Positions 18,509 to 60,454 of a stretch of DNA of 64,000 nt are shown piece by piece; positions within the stretch are counted from its first letter, which is position 1; the number at the start of each line of letters is the position of its first letter. The stretch spans positions 16,121 to 80,120 of the forward strand of contig CAYGCQ010000002.1 of the NCBI GenBank assembly GCA_964348455.1. The letters are read 5' to 3'. The notes beneath the pieces are model-generated. The model made no database searches, was not told the origin of the DNA, and was given only the letters and a program-made list of their open reading frames with translations. The position numbers were made by a program, and so were the translations under genes. The stretch is from an uncultured Pseudomonadales bacterium. GTDB taxonomy: Bacteria > Patescibacteriota > Microgenomatia > UBA1400 > MFAQ01.

Positions 18509-18535
18509 TGTCATCCCTGGCTTGACCAGGGATCC
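18509..18535 (+). repeat. REP-like hairpin repeat, type B (tgtcatccctgg-cttga-ccagggatcc)
   Basis: Conserved TGTCAT/ATCC flanks around a perfect 8-bp stem. Confidence 0.6.
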
Positions 18536-18569
18536 ATCCAATAAGTACCGAATTAGGAATTAATCTAAT

Positions 18570-18595
18570 GGATTCCTGCCTTTGCAGGAATGACA
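18570..18595 (-). repeat. REP-like hairpin repeat, type B, inverted orientation (BIME-like pair with 18509..18535)
   Basis: ggattcctgc-cttt-gcaggaatgaca is the reverse complement of the family consensus. Confidence 0.6.
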
Positions 18596-18665
18596 ATAAA
18601 ATATTTTCTGGATTGCCATGTCACCTTGTTCCTCGCAATGACGATAAACATATATAATATAGATA

Positions 18666-20430: not shown

Positions 20431-20478
20431 TGTCATTCCGACCGAACGAAGTGAGTGGAAAAATCTCCCTCCGCCTCC
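20431..20478 (+). repeat. composite repeat, type A (tgtcattccgaccga...gagtgga.aatctccctcc), 3 nt after the LCP stop
   Basis: Same 45-48 nt element also at 50495, 60381 and 46986, with a variant at 51874. Confidence 0.6.
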
Positions 20479-20482
20479 CGCT

Positions 20483-20508
20483 TGTCATCCTCGCGAAAGC
20501 GGGGATCC
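20483..20508 (+). repeat. REP-like hairpin repeat, type B (tgtcatcctcgc-gaaa-gcggggatcc)
   Basis: Flanks conserved; stem carries a G-U compensatory change. Confidence 0.6.
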
Positions 20509-20532
20509 ATGAGCTCTTTTTTCCTTGAGTTC

Positions 20533-22509
20533 CTACCTCACCTTTATCAAGTACGTCCCACCATCTTCAAAAACTTTTACTCCTAGAGATAATATAATAT
20601 CTTCATTTACCTGATACGTAGTTCTCTCATCCTCTCCCACGATAATCCACCCGACGTTATATTCTTTAAGAAGTTCTATTATTTCTACGCTGTTAAAACC
20701 TTCATATATTCCTTTTACATCAGTCTCTCTAGCTGCCACTGGTTCGTACCCACCTCTCCAAAGCCACTCATGAACTCTCCACCCCTGAATAGTAGGCACC
20801 CCGGAAAAAACAGAAACAGCATTAAAGTTTGAGTAACTATCTCCCACCGCTTCCACCATATTTTTACCGTCATAATTTCCCCTTAGATACTTGATTGCAG
20901 CGTATCTTTCCGGCATGCTTGACTCCAACCACCTTTCTCCACTCAAGCCTGAATAGGTATTAAAATTCGCATAGAAATTTGGGAATGCCACTACCGGAAA
21001 CACCATGGTTCCAATGAATATAAATGCTACCGCAAATACGGCAAATGCTCTGTACCACAGAAAAAGTTTTCTTTCTCCATCAAACAACTTACCAAACAGT
21101 GCTCCCGCCAAAAGACCAATCATGATTGAAGCTTGATATGTAAGTTTGAACATTGTGTTTGCTCTTGGGTGATCGGGATAAATATCTTTGGCGTAGACGA
21201 CTTCAGGAATAATGATTAGTAGTAATATACAAATCGCTAATGTCCAGATTGGCAAAGATTTATCTCCTTTTTTCTCAGTCAATACCGCCAGCACACTTAC
21301 TGTTATTCCACCGGTCCACAATACCGCCAGCTCCCAAAGGGGAGTTCTTTCCGTAACCATCTTTATTCCACTCGAAATAGACTGAAAAGTTACAAACCAA
21401 GGTAAGGCCGTCAGTGCCATAAAGAGAAGCATCACTCCGGCAGATTTTAAAAGTTTGACAAACTCTCTATGATCTCTGAGTATCATAATTATTCCCGAAA
21501 CAGTTAGAAGTAGTCCATAAACAGCCACATCCCATGTATTGGTCATCATCATTACTCCAAATAAAATTCCCAGTATCATTTCATCCCATATTTTTCTCGA
21601 ATGAATCCAGTGCAAGAAAATTAAAACAAAAGCCAACACGACCGGCAAATCAATCAGGTGACCATGTAGGTCCGCAACGACGAAAGAGTACCCTGGGAAC
21701 TCGTGAATGGTGTTATGGATAAATCTGGTGGCGTCTGCGTACCAGTAACCCATCAATCCTTTATGATTTAAAAAATACCAAATTACATGGGTATTTCCTG
21801 CCAACACCGTGGCGAATGCTCCGGTTAGTCCTCCAATCATGCCGGACATGTATTTCTTTGTTCCGCTCAAGAAGTATGAAATTGAAAAAGAAATAGAAAG
21901 TGATAGACCGGCTATAAAGGCTAGCATCATGTTATACCCTACGGCCGGGTCGACGCCAAAGTATCGGATAACAATGCTCGCCCAGTAATGCCCAAAAGAA
22001 TAATAGTTTATCGACTTGCCTGCTTGCCACATATCTGCCGCCGGGAGTGTTGGAGACATCAGATATCGGTTTACAAACCCAAAGTCCATAAATTTTTCCA
22101 ATGAGTCAATGTTTGGTAAAAATCCCCTGATATAAGCGATACCAAAAAGACCAACAAAAAATAAATACTCTTCGATGACGATAATTTTAAGAGTAGTTCT
22201 GGAAACGCTAATACTTTTCAATCCGCTTTTAAAGATAATTCCTAAATTTAAAATAATTACACCAGTCGTAGCCAAAATCAAACCCTGGTTTGTGTTGGCA
22301 GCTACACCCAAATTTGCCAGTTCCCAGATGACTAGTCCCGACATCATTGTAGTCAATAGTCTGGAAAGTGGGTAACCATTATCCGGAAGGTTGTGAAACA
22401 ATTTTTTTGTCAAAGGAAAGCTAATAATCTGTAAAAGAAAACTAATCAGATAGACTCTCATTACCAGCGCAATATCAGAGTTAAACATGGTTTTTAAAGC
22501 TTTTAGCAA
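20533..22509 (-). CDS. large polytopic membrane protein, GT-C / DUF2298 (Chlor_Arch_YYY)-like putative glycosyltransferase with a C-terminal extracytoplasmic domain
   Basis: 658 aa, more than 12 TM helices, then a ~170-aa soluble C-terminal domain. FPGYSFVVADLHGHLIDLP resembles the DUF2298 conserved block. Assignment from memory, not searched. Confidence 0.35.
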   Translation of the reverse strand: MLKALKTMFNSDIALVMRVYLISFLLQIISFPLTKKLFHNLPDNGYPLSRLLTTMMSGLVIWELANLGVAANTNQGLILATTGVIILNLGIIFKSGLKSISVSRTTLKIIVIEEYLFFVGLFGIAYIRGFLPNIDSLEKFMDFGFVNRYLMSPTLPAADMWQAGKSINYYSFGHYWASIVIRYFGVDPAVGYNMMLAFIAGLSLSISFSISYFLSGTKKYMSGMIGGLTGAFATVLAGNTHVIWYFLNHKGLMGYWYADATRFIHNTIHEFPGYSFVVADLHGHLIDLPVVLAFVLIFLHWIHSRKIWDEMILGILFGVMMMTNTWDVAVYGLLLTVSGIIMILRDHREFVKLLKSAGVMLLFMALTALPWFVTFQSISSGIKMVTERTPLWELAVLWTGGITVSVLAVLTEKKGDKSLPIWTLAICILLLIIIPEVVYAKDIYPDHPRANTMFKLTYQASIMIGLLAGALFGKLFDGERKLFLWYRAFAVFAVAFIFIGTMVFPVVAFPNFYANFNTYSGLSGERWLESSMPERYAAIKYLRGNYDGKNMVEAVGDSYSNFNAVSVFSGVPTIQGWRVHEWLWRGGYEPVAARETDVKGIYEGFNSVEIIELLKEYNVGWIIVGEDERTTYQVNEDIILSLGVKVFEDGGTYLIKVR

Positions 22510-23779
22510 TTATTTCTGCTACCTCTCGACCCATTTTCACCGCATAGTTTGTCCCTCTATCAAAGGGGTACACCATGCTCATATTCGCCAAGTAGACGTT
22601 ATCAGTAATTTTTTGACTCGGTATATGCTTAGAATAGTTTACAGGGAATACAGGTTGAGCGAAAGGCTTTCGGAATAAGTATGAGTTCTTAATTAATTTT
22701 TTGTCAAAGTTATTGTTAATTTTTTTTATAAAAGGTAAGTACAACTTGAGTAGCTCTACTTTGGTCATATTCAATTGAGCATTATCATCAGGTAAATAGT
22801 TTCCAAGGTAGAGCAATCTATTATTCCCATACATTTTTTTATCAATCATGTTCGTATGTTCTACTGCTACCAAAAATGGAAAATTATTCTCCAAAATATT
22901 TAGCCAATACCCCGATAGTACTTTTCTGGATATCTCCAAAATAAGTGTTTGGCCCCATAGATAATTTAGTTTGGGGAACTTCAGTCCCTTAATAAGCTTT
23001 TCGGCAATTGGCGCAGGCGTCGTAACCACTACGGCATCAAACTCCTCGCCGTTAACAACAATTTTTTTGTTGGAACTCTTATTATCAAGCAATTTGTCAT
23101 CCTCGCGAATGCTGGGATCCACAGTCTTAATTTTCTTGACTACAGTGTTCAACCTTATCTCTCCACCATTCTTTTCAATAAATGTTTCCAGTTTCTCTAC
23201 AAACTCATCAAACCCACCCTCAAAGTAGCCGAGATTCTTTGTTCTTTTTGCTACTCTACTCCAAAACCAAGCTAAATTTACCACATCTACATAAGGTCCG
23301 AACTTGGCTGAGAGTAGTTTTTCCCAAATTAACTCATATCCTTCTCGACCTATTAATCGTGGAAGTGCCTCTACTGCTTTGTATCTTTCCAAGAACAGAC
23401 CATTTGGAATAATCTTTAGCACAAATAGCCCAACACCCATTCTTAGCCTTGACCATAGCGAGAGCTGGGAAAATCTTAAAAGTGAAAGGGGGGAGTCAAG
23501 TCGTACCTCTTTACTATTAAGAAAGCTGGAAGTTATCGGGTTTTTTATTAAAATCTTCGCATTCACTTTTTTCGCAAGGGAAAAAATATCCTTATCATTA
23601 GTAAAAATGTGATGATAGAAAACTTCTAAGTTCCACTTCCATTTTCCAGAATTAAATCCCCGTGCAAGACCTCCTGCTTTTTTGTCTGATTCGAATACAA
23701 CTGAGGAGATATTGTTGTCGGCTAAGTAAGCCGAGCAACAAAGTCCGGTGATGCCTCCACCAATTATCGCAACTCTCAT
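22481..23779 (-). CDS. FAD-dependent flavoenzyme, UDP-galactopyranose mutase (Glf)-like
   Basis: N-terminal Rossmann VAIIGGGITG...E.....GGLAR; YHHIFTNDKDIF matches the UGM GAHIFHTNDKYIW block. Overlaps the downstream membrane protein by 29 nt. Confidence 0.45.
   Translation of the reverse strand: MRVAIIGGGITGLCCSAYLADNNISSVVFESDKKAGGLARGFNSGKWKWNLEVFYHHIFTNDKDIFSLAKKVNAKILIKNPITSSFLNSKEVRLDSPLSLLRFSQLSLWSRLRMGVGLFVLKIIPNGLFLERYKAVEALPRLIGREGYELIWEKLLSAKFGPYVDVVNLAWFWSRVAKRTKNLGYFEGGFDEFVEKLETFIEKNGGEIRLNTVVKKIKTVDPSIREDDKLLDNKSSNKKIVVNGEEFDAVVVTTPAPIAEKLIKGLKFPKLNYLWGQTLILEISRKVLSGYWLNILENNFPFLVAVEHTNMIDKKMYGNNRLLYLGNYLPDDNAQLNMTKVELLKLYLPFIKKINNNFDKKLIKNSYLFRKPFAQPVFPVNYSKHIPSQKITDNVYLANMSMVYPFDRGTNYAVKMGREVAEIIAKSFKNHV
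23095..23120 (+). repeat. REP-like type B element embedded in frame inside the Glf-like CDS (encodes ...VDPSIREDDK... on the minus strand)
   Basis: tgtcatcctcgcgaatgctgggatcc with both family flanks. Confidence 0.5.
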
Positions 23780-40449: not shown

Positions 40450-40475
40450 TGTCATTCCTGCGAAGGCAGGAATCC
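40450..40475 (+). repeat. REP-like hairpin repeat, type B (tgtcattcctgc-gaag-gcaggaatcc), 5 nt after the grpE stop
   Basis: Perfect 8-bp stem, conserved flanks. Confidence 0.6.
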
Positions 40476-46185: not shown

Positions 46186-47160
46186 ATGGAAGACAAAACC
46201 CAGTTTATATCAGCCAAAAAAATCTTCGATTCCGCATCCTCATTTATTGTTGCTCTACCCCCTGACCCCTCTTTAGACATTGTTTCTTCCGGCCTTAGTC
46301 TCCATCTAGCCCTAATTGCTTCCGGGAAAAAATCTCAAATTGGATGTGGCACTCCAGTTCACATTGATCCCAAAATTATCGGTGCTCAGGAAATAGCGGA
46401 CAGTATTGGTGCAAAGAATCTAATTATCTCCTTTGATTATCACGAAGATGATCTCGAAAAAGTAGACTATGATGTTCGTCCTGATGGAAAATTTTATCTA
46501 ATGGTCAAGCCAAAATCTGGCGCTCCAGTTCCAGATGTCAGTAATGTAAAGTATTCCTACTCCGGGGCTCAAGCAGATTTGGTCATAACTTTAGGCATTA
46601 ATTCTCTGGAGGAACTAGGAAAGATATACGCCGACGAAAAAAACTTTTTAGATGAAGGTAAGATTTTAAGTTTAAACATTACCCCCTGGCCTGTCCAGTT
46701 CACCAAAAACATTCTCCACCAAACATCCACCTGCTTTTCAGAGCTTGTAGCGGAACTAATTGAGAAAGTGGATTTAAAAATGTCAGGTGATGCCGCCAGA
46801 AACTTATTACAGTTCATATACGAAGAAACAAAAAATCTTACGAGCCCAAAGATGACAGCCGGAACCTTTTCCTCAATCGCTTATCTAATGAGAAATGGAG
46901 CTAAATTACCAAGCCAGCAGACTTATACTCCCAGGTTTGCTCAGCCAACCTTTTTTGAAGCCCCTCACGCACCGCTCAGCACCTCTGTCATTCCGACCGA
47001 AGTGGAGGAATCTCAAACCACCAATATAGGGGACGAAGAAAATATTCCCATGCCACAGGAAGAGAATAAGCCTTACGTCATACCTCCTTCCAAGCTAACC
47101 GAACAGCCGGTGCCAAACGACTGGACCAAGCCCAAGATCTTCCGCGCAGGCGACCTGTAG
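46186..47160 (+). CDS. degenerate DHH/NrnA-like protein (DHH motif not conserved), with a low-complexity C-terminal tail that reads through a repeat element
   Basis: N-terminal SFIVALPPDPSLDIVSSGLSLHLAL...GK resembles the NrnA architecture but has no H..PD.D. Confidence 0.35.
   Translation: MEDKTQFISAKKIFDSASSFIVALPPDPSLDIVSSGLSLHLALIASGKKSQIGCGTPVHIDPKIIGAQEIADSIGAKNLIISFDYHEDDLEKVDYDVRPDGKFYLMVKPKSGAPVPDVSNVKYSYSGAQADLVITLGINSLEELGKIYADEKNFLDEGKILSLNITPWPVQFTKNILHQTSTCFSELVAELIEKVDLKMSGDAARNLLQFIYEETKNLTSPKMTAGTFSSIAYLMRNGAKLPSQQTYTPRFAQPTFFEAPHAPLSTSVIPTEVEESQTTNIGDEENIPMPQEENKPYVIPPSKLTEQPVPNDWTKPKIFRAGDL
46986..47022 (+). repeat. type A repeat (short variant) embedded in frame in the 3' region of 46186..47160
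   Basis: tgtcattccgaccgaagtggaggaatctcaaaccacc translates as SVIPTEVEESQTT. Confidence 0.55.
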
Positions 47161-50494: not shown

Positions 50495-50540
50495 CGTCAT
50501 TCCGACCGAGCAATACGAGTGGAGGAATCTCCCTCCACCC
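50495..50540 (+). repeat. type A repeat directly 3' of pnp
   Basis: cgtcattccgaccgagcaatacgagtggaggaatctccctccaccc. Confidence 0.6.
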
Positions 50541-50667: not shown

Positions 50668-50794
50668 AAAGCTCTGGGATAACCCCTTATCAATCTCAAT
50701 TGTGTTTATTGGTAGAGCCGTCTTGGAATGGTATTGCAGGGGAGGAAGTAACCTGACGTGGCAATCTCTCACCATCTATATATAATGGTAACTG

Positions 50795-51868
50795 ATGGAT
50801 AACTCTGCCCTCGCCCCAAATGCGAATTCCGCCGCAAAACGCGATCTAGATCTGCTTACTCAAAAACTCGAAGGTGTCGAGATGCCGCCGGAGCTAAAGC
50901 TCAAGGCTCAAGACATGGTTGCTCGTTTAGAGCGTATGTTCTCTCAGGGCTTTTATTCCGAAGAGTTCGAAAAAGTTTCACACTACATAGATTGGATAAT
51001 CAAAGTTCCCTGGGTCAAGAGAGTTGAACGTCCCATTGACTTGACAACCATCAAAGACTCTATGGACAAAAGCCATTACGGTATGGAGTCGGTCAAAGAA
51101 AGAATTCTTGAATATATGTCAATCCTTAAGCTTCGTCAGTCCAGGAACTTGGGAGTTGCCCGTGCTCCAATTATTTGTCTAGTTGGTTTAGTTGGTACCG
51201 GAAAAACTACTTTTGCTTACGCTCTTTCGGAAGCTCTTGGTAGACCCATTGCCCGTATTCCCTTTGGAGGACTTGGCAGTGCACGTGACCTTCGAGGTGA
51301 ATCCCGTCTGCACATTGAGGCTGAACCTGGATATGTAGCCCGTGCTCTTTGTGATTCAGGGGTAAAAAATCCTATTATCCTTCTGGACGAAATCGATCGC
51401 GTCACAGAAGAAGCTCGTATGGACATCATGGGTGTTTTGGTTGAGTTACTCGACCCAAGCCAAAACAATCGTTTCTTGGACCATTTCATCGACTATCCGG
51501 TAGATCTTTCGGAGGTTATGTTTATTGCTACAGCTAACAACACTGGGAATCTAGCTACTGCTGTTATGGATCGTCTAGAGCCCATCCAAATGCCATCCTA
51601 CACAGATGAAGAGAAGACTAAGATCGCTCAAGATTATCTAATGCCCAAGGCCTTAGAATCAGCCGGAATGGACCCCGCCACCATTACCATCGACCCTTCT
51701 CTCTGGCCAAACATTATTCGCCCCCTTGGCTACGATGCAGGTATTCGTACTCTTAACCGCACTATTGAAGGAATTGTTCGCAAGGTGGCTATGATGGTTG
51801 TCACTGGTCAAGCTAAGACAGTTCAACTAACTCCAGACAACATAAAAGGCTTCCTACCTAAGTGGTAA
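50795..51868 (+). CDS. Lon-like AAA+ ATPase module with no protease domain
   Basis: GLVGTGKT Walker A, ILLDEIDR Walker B, sensor-2 and helical subdomain align block-by-block with the E. coli Lon AAA+ module; ORF stops at the AAA+/protease junction. Confidence 0.65.
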   Translation: MDNSALAPNANSAAKRDLDLLTQKLEGVEMPPELKLKAQDMVARLERMFSQGFYSEEFEKVSHYIDWIIKVPWVKRVERPIDLTTIKDSMDKSHYGMESVKERILEYMSILKLRQSRNLGVARAPIICLVGLVGTGKTTFAYALSEALGRPIARIPFGGLGSARDLRGESRLHIEAEPGYVARALCDSGVKNPIILLDEIDRVTEEARMDIMGVLVELLDPSQNNRFLDHFIDYPVDLSEVMFIATANNTGNLATAVMDRLEPIQMPSYTDEEKTKIAQDYLMPKALESAGMDPATITIDPSLWPNIIRPLGYDAGIRTLNRTIEGIVRKVAMMVVTGQAKTVQLTPDNIKGFLPKW

Positions 51869-51873
51869 ACCAT

Positions 51874-52282
51874 CGTCATTGCGAATCTCGGTACTCCGAG
51901 CTGTGGCAATCTCCCTCCACCTCATTCACACCAACGTTCCATGCAAATCATCCCATTTTGGATTCATCCTTTCAACAAATCATTCCTCCTCTTCCTCGAC
52001 CAAGATTTTATTTGCTTTTCCCTCTGAATTGCTTCAATCATTACGTCGAAAATTCGTAGTAAACAAGTTTGTTGAGTGAATATTCTTTTGTAAATCCTTC
52101 CGAAACCTTAATCTTATGTTCCCAAGATCTTCTTAGTAAATCCTTTGTTACTCCTACATAAATAGTAGTGTTGTATTCGTTAGTCATAATATAAATACTT
52201 GGAGTTTTAACCATCGATTTATTTAATTTATCTTTCGTGGATTGAGATTGCCACGTCGTAAATACACTCCTCGCAATGACGG
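51874..52282. mobile_element. about 410-bp unit bounded by imperfect inverted repeats (cgtcattgcga...gtggcaatctc; 51874-51921 and 52239-52282, related to the type A repeat) enclosing a frameshifted GIY-YIG gene
   Basis: Inverted repeats read directly from sequence; inferred MITE-like or small element. Confidence 0.3.
51964..52214 (-). pseudogene. GIY-YIG nuclease superfamily (COG2827-like, about 83 aa) gene disrupted by a 1-nt frameshift near 52041
   Basis: Frame 1: MVKTPSIYIMTNEYNTTIYVGVTKDLLRRSWEHK...KLVYYEFST*. Shifted frame continues ...MIEAIQREKQIKSWSRKRRNDLLKG* (GIY, YIG, R, E and REKQIK motifs present). Confidence 0.6.
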
Positions 52283-52286
52283 TATT

Positions 52287-53681
52287 TTATTTTTCTAATA
52301 ACCCAAGCATCCTTTTTTCAACAGCTTCCGCTCTCTTTTTGTTTTTCCCAAAAATTATGTATGACAGATATCCATCATGAAGTAAGTTTGATGAACAAAT
52401 TACCAGTCCCTCTTTTGATTTTTTTGAGAACAAAATCGGCGCCATCAGTTTATAGAGCTTTTTAAATGTCGTTTTTTTCTTCCCGGGAAGAGTGTGCATG
52501 TTTTCGCAAAGTACATATGATTTTTTCATGAAGTCTCTTCCTGCAAGCTCTATTGCTGTGTTATACATGTGAGTTCCTCCAGTCACTCTCACGTTTGATT
52601 CATTTACAAAGATCTGTCCTTTTTTGCCAGCGATAAAATCAATATCAAAGTAACCACGGTACCCATCTTCAGAATAATGTTCACCAATTAAATACCCAAT
52701 GTCAGTGATTCTCGAAGCCACTCTTTTTGGTAATGTTTCCTCCCCGATTTCGATTCCAGCGAACACCCCTTGCTTGTCTACCCGCATGCCGCAGTAATAC
52801 AGAAATTTTACTTCGCCATTTTTTTTAATTAAAAATTCGGAGTTAGGGAAACCTCCTCCAATCCGAGGGTTTGGCTTGACTAGTGACTCCACCACAATCG
52901 GAAATTTTTCCCAATATGCGTCCTTTCTCAGTATTTCAATTATTTTTTTCTCACATTCCGCAAATTTTTTAGGCAAGTCTCCTTTATGAAAAATCAAAAC
53001 TCCAGCCCCGGAGTGACCCTTATTCGTTTTTATAACAACTCCACCCTCCTTGATGAATTTATTTGCCGCAATCCCCGCGGTATCGATAATCCCGGAGCTT
53101 ATCACTCCACTTGGCATTTTCAAATCGGCTCTTATTGCACCATTTATTTGGGTCAGTTGACGAATACCAGACTTGCTTCCGTAAAAGTTAACAGTCCAGG
53201 CATCGGACTCTTCCGGCGCAAGCGGAGTTCTAACCTCTACCCCTCGATCTCTCAAGGTCTTTACTAGATATAGAAACTCCGGGGAAGTTGAATAGGAGGT
53301 AATTGAAAGCCTCTTATACTTCTTCTTCATTTTTACAAGTCTGTCCATGATATCCTTGTCCTCCAAAATATCATCGCAGAGTTTGCCTGTGTGTTTTTTG
53401 GTAACCAAAATTTCCAGATCTCTCACTTCACATAGTTTCTTAAAATAATCTACAAACAGGGGATCAATCGGCTTTGGAACAATAAAGGTAAATTCAAATT
53501 CCTCAGCCATCGAAAACAGATCTTTATCTGTCAAATTGGCATTTTCATCAATCTCCCATTTTTGAAGTTTCTTATCCCCATAGGCTTCGATAAAAGGCCA
53601 AACATCCTCAGAGCAATTAAATATTCTTATTACCCTTTCTCTTTTCTTTCCTCCAGGCTTATCTGCTTTTGTCTTTTTCAT
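52287..53681 (-). CDS. ATP-grasp fold ligase-like protein (N-terminal pre-ATP-grasp region + ATP-grasp core)
   Basis: ...TNKGHSGAGVLIF..., PIVVESLV, GYFDIDFIAGKKGQIFVNESNVR resemble ATP-grasp B- and C-loop blocks. Confidence 0.45.
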   Translation of the reverse strand: MKKTKADKPGGKKRERVIRIFNCSEDVWPFIEAYGDKKLQKWEIDENANLTDKDLFSMAEEFEFTFIVPKPIDPLFVDYFKKLCEVRDLEILVTKKHTGKLCDDILEDKDIMDRLVKMKKKYKRLSITSYSTSPEFLYLVKTLRDRGVEVRTPLAPEESDAWTVNFYGSKSGIRQLTQINGAIRADLKMPSGVISSGIIDTAGIAANKFIKEGGVVIKTNKGHSGAGVLIFHKGDLPKKFAECEKKIIEILRKDAYWEKFPIVVESLVKPNPRIGGGFPNSEFLIKKNGEVKFLYYCGMRVDKQGVFAGIEIGEETLPKRVASRITDIGYLIGEHYSEDGYRGYFDIDFIAGKKGQIFVNESNVRVTGGTHMYNTAIELAGRDFMKKSYVLCENMHTLPGKKKTTFKKLYKLMAPILFSKKSKEGLVICSSNLLHDGYLSYIIFGKNKKRAEAVEKRMLGLLEK

Positions 53682-60380: not shown

Positions 60381-60426
60381 TGTCATTCCGACCGAATGTA
60401 GTGAGTGGAGGAATCTCACACCACCC
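60381..60426 (+). repeat. type A repeat 6 nt after the rodZ-like stop
   Basis: tgtcattccgaccgaatgtagtgagtggaggaatctcacaccaccc. Confidence 0.6.
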
Positions 60427-60427
60427 T

Positions 60428-60454
60428 TGTCATTCCCGACTTGATCGGGAATCT
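60428..60454 (+). repeat. REP-like type B hairpin (tgtcattcccga-cttga-tcgggaatct) immediately after the type A copy; same A+B arrangement as at 20431-20508
   Basis: Perfect 8-bp stem. Confidence 0.6.

Follow-up and report, generated by a model that had tools for sequence, protein, structure and literature searches.

A probable, recently inactivated Ssn-family gene in its hairpin cassette in a Candidatus Collierbacteria genome

Between two convergent genes in the window (the whole 64,000-nt stretch of contig CAYGCQ010000002.1, assembly GCA_964348455.1, analyzed here) lies a small GIY-YIG gene that is broken across three reading frames and bracketed by a pair of inverted hairpin repeats. One neighbor, on the plus strand at 50795-51868, encodes a Lon-like AAA+ ATPase of 357 amino acids (aa) with AAA and Lon_lid domains and no protease domain detected by Pfam. 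The other, on the minus strand at 52287-53681, encodes an ATP-grasp-like protein with weak Pfam matches only, and an exact look-up of this protein returned no record. Members of the Lon-like protein's cluster are annotated as Candidatus Collierbacteria or Microgenomates, and the protein is kept at 55-91% identity in many groundwater contigs of the candidate phyla radiation (CPR). We read the locus as a recently inactivated gene of the Ssn family within its cassette of two Ssn-related motifs (SRM-ssn-SRM) in a groundwater Candidatus Collierbacteria (CPR) genome, and give this reading a probability of about 0.85. The architecture of a gene plus hairpins is already published, and the window provides an ordinary new, decayed example of it.

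The broken gene and its two lesions

The pseudogene (Pfam PF01541) occupies 289 nt of the minus strand, from 52214 to 51926. Its first frame opens with an ATG at 52214 and runs to 52044, encoding 57 aa (MVKTPSIYIMTNEYNTTIYVGVTKDLLRRSWEHKIKVSEGFTKEYSLNKLVYYEFST) before a stop at 52043-52041. The second frame (52041-51967; stop at 51966-51964) encodes 25 aa (MIEAIQREKQIKSWSRKRRNDLLKG) ending in ...NDLLKG, and the third follows it directly (51967-51929, MNPKWDDLHGTLV) and ends at a TGA at 51928-51926. The 57-aa piece alone matches the Pfam GIY-YIG model with an E-value of 7e-8; joined to the second piece it matches PF01541 at 7e-14, covering profile positions 3-77 of 78, and no family besides GIY-YIG was matched in the Pfam scan of the gene product. 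An earlier note on this DNA, made from the sequence alone, had described a frameshifted small GIY-YIG gene on the minus strand, and both open reading frames (ORFs) that it quoted exist. It had placed a single frameshift near 52041; a frameshift is real, but it lies in a T-run at 52049-52053, and a second one at 51976/51977 had been overlooked.

DNA alignments with L001-L008, contigs that carry the orthologous site, and with L172, an unrelated locus in another organism, show that one T is gone from the run on the minus strand, so that gaaTTTTT(T/C)ga has become gaaTTTTcga. The result is a stop after residue 57, ahead of the catalytic glutamate (E66). At the second lesion, also read on the minus strand, one base is gone (gatttGgttg to gatttgttg), and the DNA alignment to the intact orthologue contains exactly these two single-base deletions. 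That orthologue, P0001, is an intact protein of 96 aa and is 87% identical to a single-frameshift repair of the window protein. Its gene sits at the same site, in the interval between the ATP-grasp-like and Lon-like genes with both repeats kept, in at least 10 groundwater metagenome contigs. When both deletions are restored, the window gene becomes a 96-aa ORF that is identical to P0001 at 87 of 96 positions, and its true C-terminus reads ...NDLVERMNPKWDDLHGTLV before the TGA at 51928-51926, 4 nt short of the inner end of the downstream repeat.

The repaired length agrees with that of the family. In an alignment with 11 homologues (87-101 aa), intact members are about 96 aa long and end in ...NPKW.DL...LV; intact homologues are single-domain proteins of 94-97 aa. 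All 54 homologues retrieved are single ORFs, mostly of 87-105 aa, save an identical truncated one. The interval between the two repeats in the window is fully used by a 22-nt leader on the minus strand (52215-52236, gaaagataaattaaataaatcg) that reaches from the upstream repeat to the ATG, the 289-nt gene, and a 4-nt spacer. This leader is partly kept in L001 (gaaagatgaatt..) and L172 (gaaaggtacatt..). A second GIY-YIG copy was sought throughout the 64 kb and none was found, so the window holds a single ssn copy.

In the repaired protein, Y8, Y19, and E66 align with Y6, Y17, and E64 of a 94-aa proteobacterial homologue. In the actual DNA of the window, E66 is out of frame past the first deletion, and two 1-nt deletions with a stop after codon 57 leave the gene without the intact ORF of a functional member. 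The only product read from the gene's start codon, of 57 aa, would keep Y8 and Y19 and lose the metal-binding E66, and it should be inactive. Compared with the gene of P0001, the window gene has a ratio of nonsynonymous to synonymous substitution rates (dN/dS) of 0.067 at a dS of 0.67. This suggests that the gene was under purifying selection through nearly all of the divergence and that its inactivation is recent.

A sequencing or assembly error in an intact gene would also produce frameshifts, and one of the lesions does fall within a homopolymer T-run, in a gene whose intact orthologue is under strong purifying selection. We consider this explanation very improbable because the two lesions are separate, the second lies outside any homopolymer run, and the broken allele recurs with 100% identity over both sites in five contigs, which come from at least three runs and were built by two assemblers (Logan assemblies of ERR3094302, ERR3094293, and ERR3094294; MEGAHIT assemblies ERZ27247817 and ERZ27247828). 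The possibility of an assembly error, which the earlier note had raised, is thereby essentially removed.

It is even harder to believe that the gene is still functional, through programmed ribosomal frameshifting or through split fragments that complement each other. An in-frame ATG does open the second and third segments (at 52041 and 51967), and the first shift site is T-rich. We rejected programmed frameshifting on the grounds that two separate, successive -1 events would be needed and that neither site is a canonical slippery heptamer (X XXY YYZ, zero frame). As for complementing fragments, the homologues are single ORFs, and a 96-aa single-domain fold delivered in three peptides is unlikely to be active.

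The bracketing hairpins and the Ssn family

Chenal et al. (Nat Commun, 2025; PMC11893778) described the Ssn family (CDD cd10448, GIY-YIG_unchar_3) as single-domain GIY-YIG proteins of about 94 aa. For SsnA of N. meningitidis and for three homologues, binding to a hairpin repeat requires single-stranded DNA (ssDNA), and the cut falls a few nt to the 5' side of the repeat, with no activity on double-stranded DNA (dsDNA) and no interaction with RNA (PMC11893778). In SsnA, the substitutions Y6A, Y17A, and E64A each abolish cleavage. The repeat bound by the enzyme, NTS (CGTCATTCCCGCGMAVGCGGGAATCYRG), includes dRS3; cutting depends critically on the GTC at the 5' side of its palindrome, and binding on the C at the 3' side (PMC11893778). 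With a degenerate string for Ssn-related motifs (SRMs), the authors found at least one motif near 71% of homologues and motifs on both sides of 42%. They likened NTS-ssnA-NTS to an insertion sequence (IS) or a REP/RAYT system and offered mobility and domestication as hypotheses (PMC11893778). Our literature search found no follow-up paper to this study.

The two repeats that bracket the window gene are 45-48 nt long and are inverted copies of one repeat. The upstream SRM, an ATTGC-type hairpin repeat of the kind called "type A", lies on the minus strand at about 52237-52282 (CGTCATTGCGA-GGAGTGTATTTACGAC-GTGGCAATC-TCAATCCAC); its 5' GTC points outward, it starts 6 nt past the stop codon of the ATP-grasp-like gene, and it is kept at the orthologous site in L001-L010. 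The downstream SRM, inverted with respect to the gene, lies on the plus strand at 51874-51921 (CGTCATTGCGA-ATCTCGGTACTCCGAGCT-GTGGCAATC-TCCCTCCACC) and starts 5 nt past the Lon-like stop codon (6 nt to GTCAT). The two copies agree fully in the outer blocks CGTCATTGCGA and GTGGCAATCTC and differ in the inner 21-23 nt; complementarity of the arms reaches 84% between 51866-51884 and 52271-52289 and 89% between 51903-51920 and 52237-52254. Exact GTCATTGCGA and exact GTGGCAATCTC each occur three times in the window, and their counts with one mismatch exceed those in every dinucleotide shuffle. The description of the gene as bounded by inverted variants of a dispersed type A repeat, already given in the earlier note, thus holds as to both position and sequence. 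An independent assembly contig (L183) ends inside an SRM, at window position 52283, which suggests that SRM repeats break up CPR assemblies.

Both bracketing copies have the features that matter in the published system. GTC-ATTGC...GCAAT-C stands upstream on the minus strand and its inverse downstream on the plus strand, with GTC directly 5' and C directly 3' of the palindrome. The outer stem, ATTGC/GCAAT here and ATTCC/GGAAT in other copies, represents a compensatory swap, and the inner hairpin of the downstream repeat (CTCGG/CCGAG) covaries in relatives as TTCGG/CCGAA, CTTG/CAAG, and CCCGCC/GGCGGG. By analogy with the characterized enzymes, the intact 96-aa protein (as P0001) would bind its cognate hairpin in ssDNA, with GTC directly 5' of the ATTGC...GCAAT stem and C directly 3' of it, and, as the four characterized homologues do, would nick a few nt 5' of the GTC. 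In the window, the two 1-nt deletions that break the frame and bring in the stop at residue 57 would then leave an inactive product.

The association of gene and hairpins extends well beyond this genome. We fetched 80 homologue loci (49-61% identity, from nearly all bacterial phyla), 75 of them usable, and searched for hairpins within 120 nt of the gene. A forward GTCAT hairpin was found upstream at 55% of the 75 loci and an inverted one downstream at 61%, with both at 43% (32/75), over a background hairpin rate of 2.2% per window per strand. The 5-nt stem is the same on both sides in 26 of the 32 doubly flanked loci. ATTGC is the commonest stem (24/41), and the long ATTGC type therefore appears to be a widespread class of SRM overlooked by the published string.

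Membership in the family is supported by several comparisons. The repaired ORF has the expected single-domain size, 96 aa, without an extra DNA-binding domain. Its product shares 47% identity (E 5e-31; 92 of 96 aa aligned) with the Nitrosomonadales homologue of L085, which is 94 aa long and whose gene has flanks on both sides that match the published NTS consensus exactly. The published criteria for the family are a BLASTP E-value below 1e-10 at 75% coverage or more to SsnA (CAX49033.1), or cd10448 as the top CDD match (PMC11893778). When homologues were sought with a betaproteobacterial relative as the seed, no Neisseria entry appeared in the best 120 of at least 7,993 matches, and a PDB sequence search with the intact orthologue gave nothing at E <= 0.01.

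Four points weigh against our interpretation. First, the published string, HGTCWYN(0-2)YYVSBRHN(0-5)WNVSBRGN(0-2)RNCYNB, matches only 20483-20510 and 23095-23122 in the window, neither of which is a bracketing repeat; under the paper's operational test, at least one SRM in each 500-bp flank (5' and 3'), the window locus would count as unflanked. This failure we attribute to the narrow loop and stem definition of the string, which overlooks 33 of the 41 upstream hairpins and 36 of the 46 downstream ones at the 75 nearest-homologue loci (it catches 8-10 vs. 41-46). Second, the bracketing repeats do not stand out when each is folded by itself as DNA (z -2.4 and -0.2), and the outer stem is not recovered; the hairpin structure of the long repeats thus rests on covariation rather than on such folding. 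Third, the assignment to cd10448 goes by way of an intermediate homologue and the shared architecture. Fourth, ssDNA binding and cleavage by the intact enzyme are predicted from the site-specific, ssDNA-only binding and cleavage of four proteobacterial homologues (PMC11893778).

Another enzyme with the same catalytic domain would be a classical free-standing homing endonuclease of the I-TevI or T4 Seg kind, with a dsDNA target at the repeat. The protein and such enzymes share the GIY-YIG core and a presence/absence polymorphism of the gene, and the only NCBIfam match is a weak, sub-threshold one to a group I intron endonuclease model (TIGR01453). That match, however, reaches 24 bits where the cut-off is 56. 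Homing enzymes exceed 200 aa, have separate DNA-binding domains, and cut dsDNA, whereas the window protein is a bare 96-aa domain without DNA-binding domain or linker and has no intron or phage context. Its characterized relatives are inactive on dsDNA (PMC11893778). We therefore give this possibility almost no weight.

Dispersed hairpins, orthologous sites, and mobility

About 15 elements in the window start with GTCAT and end with ...AATC, and the 13 or so besides the bracketing pair would likewise be Ssn-related motifs. A simple hairpin model finds 14 in the window where 1.1 are expected. The short form is GTCATTCC-NNN-loop-NNN-GGAATC, and the copies at 40451 and 60429 fold strongly as DNA (z about -4.4). 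Type A consists of GTC, a 5-bp outer stem (ATTCC/GGAAT or ATTGC/GCAAT), an internal loop, a variable inner hairpin, and a CTCnnnCCAC tail. Eight ATTGC-type copies taken from Collierbacteria relatives do not vary in their outer stem, and compensatory changes occur at five inner pairs; from these alignments, type A appears to be a long SRM variant in which a conserved outer stem encloses a freely covarying inner hairpin. Scanned in full against Rfam at gathering thresholds, the window gave no match; the tRNA/tmRNA scan was likewise empty and thus offers no sign of an integration site.

Many of the elements lie close behind genes. A solo ATTCC-type type A SRM on the plus strand at 50496-50539 begins 8 nt past the PNPase stop codon, and a separate, canonical terminator-like hairpin with a T-run follows it. 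A second solo ATTCC-type copy (60382-60425, plus strand) lies 6 nt past the stop of a helix-turn-helix (HTH) protein gene and is followed by a short NTS-like hairpin at 60429-60453. At 20432-20510 on the plus strand, a solo type A SRM (20432-20475) located 3 nt past the stop of a LytR-family gene is accompanied by a short hairpin, GTCATCCTCGCGAAAGCGGGGATCC, which fits the published string (20483-20510). A short NTS-like hairpin, GTCATTCCTGCGAAGGCAGGAATC, occupies 40451-40474 on the plus strand, 5 nt past the GrpE stop codon. A divergent intergenic region at 18510-18642 holds a cluster of three SRMs, two of them short (18510-18534, plus; 18571-18594, minus) and one of ATTGC type (18611-18642, minus).

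Other copies occur in or near coding sequence. One type A SRM (46987-47022, plus strand) lies within a long ORF (46186-47160, no Pfam match), about 170 nt ahead of its stop; either this ORF is called too long or the SRM is translated. An imperfect hairpin at 23095-23122 on the plus strand (TGTCATCCTCGCGAATGCTGGGATCCAC) fits the published string and lies inside an amine-oxidase-family gene of the opposite strand (22481-23779). A degenerate ATTGC-type type A copy, GGTATTGCAGGGGAGGAAGTAACCTGACGTGGCAATCTCTCACCATC, is found at about 50730-50776 on the plus strand, just ahead of the Lon-like start codon; in relatives, the spacer between the PNPase and Lon-like genes holds two small ORFs. Twelve SRMs are on the plus strand and three on the minus strand, GC skew is negative in 14 of 16 4-kb bins, and cumulative GC skew drops almost steadily over the 64 kb. 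The orientation may reflect a replication-strand bias like that of ssDNA-dependent elements, for which the sample is too small to conclude.

Six of the 13 intergenic SRMs start 3-8 nt past a co-oriented stop codon, behind the LytR-family, GrpE, PNPase, Lon-like, ATP-grasp-like, and HTH protein genes (starts at 20432, 40451, 50496, 51875, 52280 on the minus strand, and 60382; binomial P about 3e-8 vs. uniform intergenic placement). A similar trend is seen at the loci of relatives, where 4 of 19 SRMs are likewise stop-proximal (P 5e-5), although these sites are partly orthologous and hence not independent. Such placement is what would be expected if the two bracketing repeats were independent 3'-end elements, such as RNA-stabilizing or terminator hairpins of the convergent Lon-like and ATP-grasp-like genes. 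The pseudogene would then merely happen to lie in the gap, and convergent transcription would account for the inverted bracket. The earlier note had offered a version of this, a pseudogene trapped between elements of 3' untranslated regions. The terminator-like hairpin at the PNPase gene is separate from the SRM and follows it, and the SRM is thus not obviously the terminator itself; in addition, the characterized proteins bind their hairpins as ssDNA and do not interact with RNA (PMC11893778).

The orthologous sites bear on this question from both sides. We fetched 80 orthologous loci with the Lon-like protein as anchor, and none of these 80 has the GIY-YIG gene. Where the ATP-grasp neighbor is kept, the site is empty in L105, L110, L112, and L114, with the two stop codons 0-2 nt apart; a single type A SRM lies between the two stop codons in L101; gene-less inverted SRM doublets, which are REPIN-like, are found in L129 (3575-3660) and L094 (3575-3743); and L098 has three SRMs. 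The remaining loci that retain the ATP-grasp gene have unrelated ORFs at the site. The L094 pair resembles the pair that flanks the gene in L001, and one of its SRMs carries a 20-nt perfect palindrome insertion (CCTGCCTGCCGGCAGGCAGG) within the inner hairpin. Just past the Lon-like stop, a full type A SRM in L098 (GTCATTGCGAGG...AATCTCACTCCACCAACAA) corresponds to ..GTCA followed by CTCCATCACCAA in L129, as if the stretch between short TCA repeats had been deleted from within the element and a footprint left behind. Inverted hairpin pairs without a gene and a single hairpin at this site are compatible with independent 3'-end elements.

Copies of the gene also lie at two unrelated loci. At L172, a gene for a 79%-identical protein (P0002) lies between PEGA-domain and MreB genes. 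Sequence resemblance to the window sets in precisely at the GTCAT of the upstream SRM and extends as far as the stop codon of the gene. The upstream SRM of L172 is near-identical to that of the window (43/45), including its idiosyncratic inner sequence, and what precedes it is the 5' end of a minus-strand gene rather than a co-oriented stop codon. In a third setting, L178 (1400-2030), a 68%-identical gene (P0004) adjoins a peptidase S11 gene; copies of the same tandem SRM pair lie in direct repeat on both sides of P0004, and one inverted SRM follows. The first SRM in L178 starts 6 nt past the stop codon of the upstream gene. L172 also carries a second GIY-YIG gene (positions 1-68), about 2.4 kb from P0002, and thus some Microgenomates genomes hold several GIY-YIG copies. 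Together with the matching hairpins on both sides of 43% of the 75 homologues from many phyla, L172 weakens the case for independent 3'-end elements, which we regard as an unlikely explanation; the stop-proximal repeats and the gene-less L094 pair are what still speak for it.

We favor the interpretation that the cassette, or at least the upstream SRM with the gene, behaves as a unit that is gained and lost. As the authors of the published study hypothesized by analogy with REP/RAYT, it is probably mobile and polymorphic for insertion and deletion (PMC11893778). L097 and L099 share 99.8% DNA identity with L001 over 2.9 kb, ending exactly at the Lon-like stop and unrelated beyond it, with the point of divergence 4 nt ahead of the SRM in L001; this break could be a recombination breakpoint at the SRM or a strain-level replacement of the cassette. 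No flanking direct repeat that would mark a target-site duplication was seen around the cassette and the five type A copies that we inspected; the 3' boundary of the element is itself imprecise. The earlier note had proposed a decaying autonomous unit. A decaying unit fits best, given the SRM that travels with the gene to L172 and the doubly flanked loci; its autonomy is unproven, with no target-site duplication seen.

More tentatively, and with some doubt on our part, SRM-ssn-SRM might be a self-propagating mobile element with its left end exactly at GTCAT, either the GIY-YIG equivalent of REP/RAYT or an IS-like element of a new class. Such an element would seed solo and doublet hairpins, including type A, preferentially a few nt past stop codons, in a selfish cycle of birth and decay, and the locus series would represent its full, gene-less doublet, single-hairpin, and empty states. 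We know of no transposition chemistry for the Ssn family.

Comparison with known systems and implications

The closest counterpart of the locus is the Ssn/SsnA system itself, with which it shares the single-domain GIY-YIG protein of about 94-97 aa, the catalytic Tyr, Tyr, and Glu at equivalent positions, the inverted and oriented hairpins (GTC on the 5' side, C on the 3' side), the many solo intergenic copies, and the occurrence in many phyla. Unlike in that system, the window gene is dead, the hairpin is long, bipartite, and of ATTGC type with a CTCnnnCCAC tail, and the repeats of this genome prefer positions 3-8 nt past stop codons. The short hairpins of the window share the dRS3/NTS core (ATTCC...GGAAT) and asymmetric flanks with the Neisseria dRS3/NIME repeats, but the stem bases past ATTCC are TGC, CGA, and others, not CGCG.

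REP/RAYT systems (REPINs) are also similar in that a small nuclease gene is flanked by inverted hairpins, the repeat is dispersed as intergenic singlets and inverted doublets, hairpins are recognized in ssDNA, and the question of domestication versus selfishness arises. In contrast to the RAYTs, the window protein has a GIY-YIG domain only, and Pfam gave no match to an HUH-Y1 (IS200/IS605-type) transposase. GIY-YIG enzymes hydrolyze DNA and form no covalent intermediates, and the copy-out/paste-in chemistry of RAYTs therefore cannot be assumed for them.

These observations have several implications for the family. The published flanking frequencies are probably underestimates because the string misses the long ATTGC-type hairpins, the commonest beside the 75 nearest homologues; a structure-aware model would serve better. 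Natural enzyme-hairpin pairs are candidate reagents for sequence-specific cutting of ssDNA, and P0001 with its two hairpins is one such pair. For the organism, SRMs located 3-8 nt past stop codons in a tiny, gene-dense CPR genome hint at target choice or at a secondary role at 3' ends. Finally, the series of states at the orthologous site (empty, one to three hairpins, gene-less pair, intact, and broken), taken with the sharp boundary at GTCAT, provides comparative evidence for a mobility that had only been hypothesized (PMC11893778).

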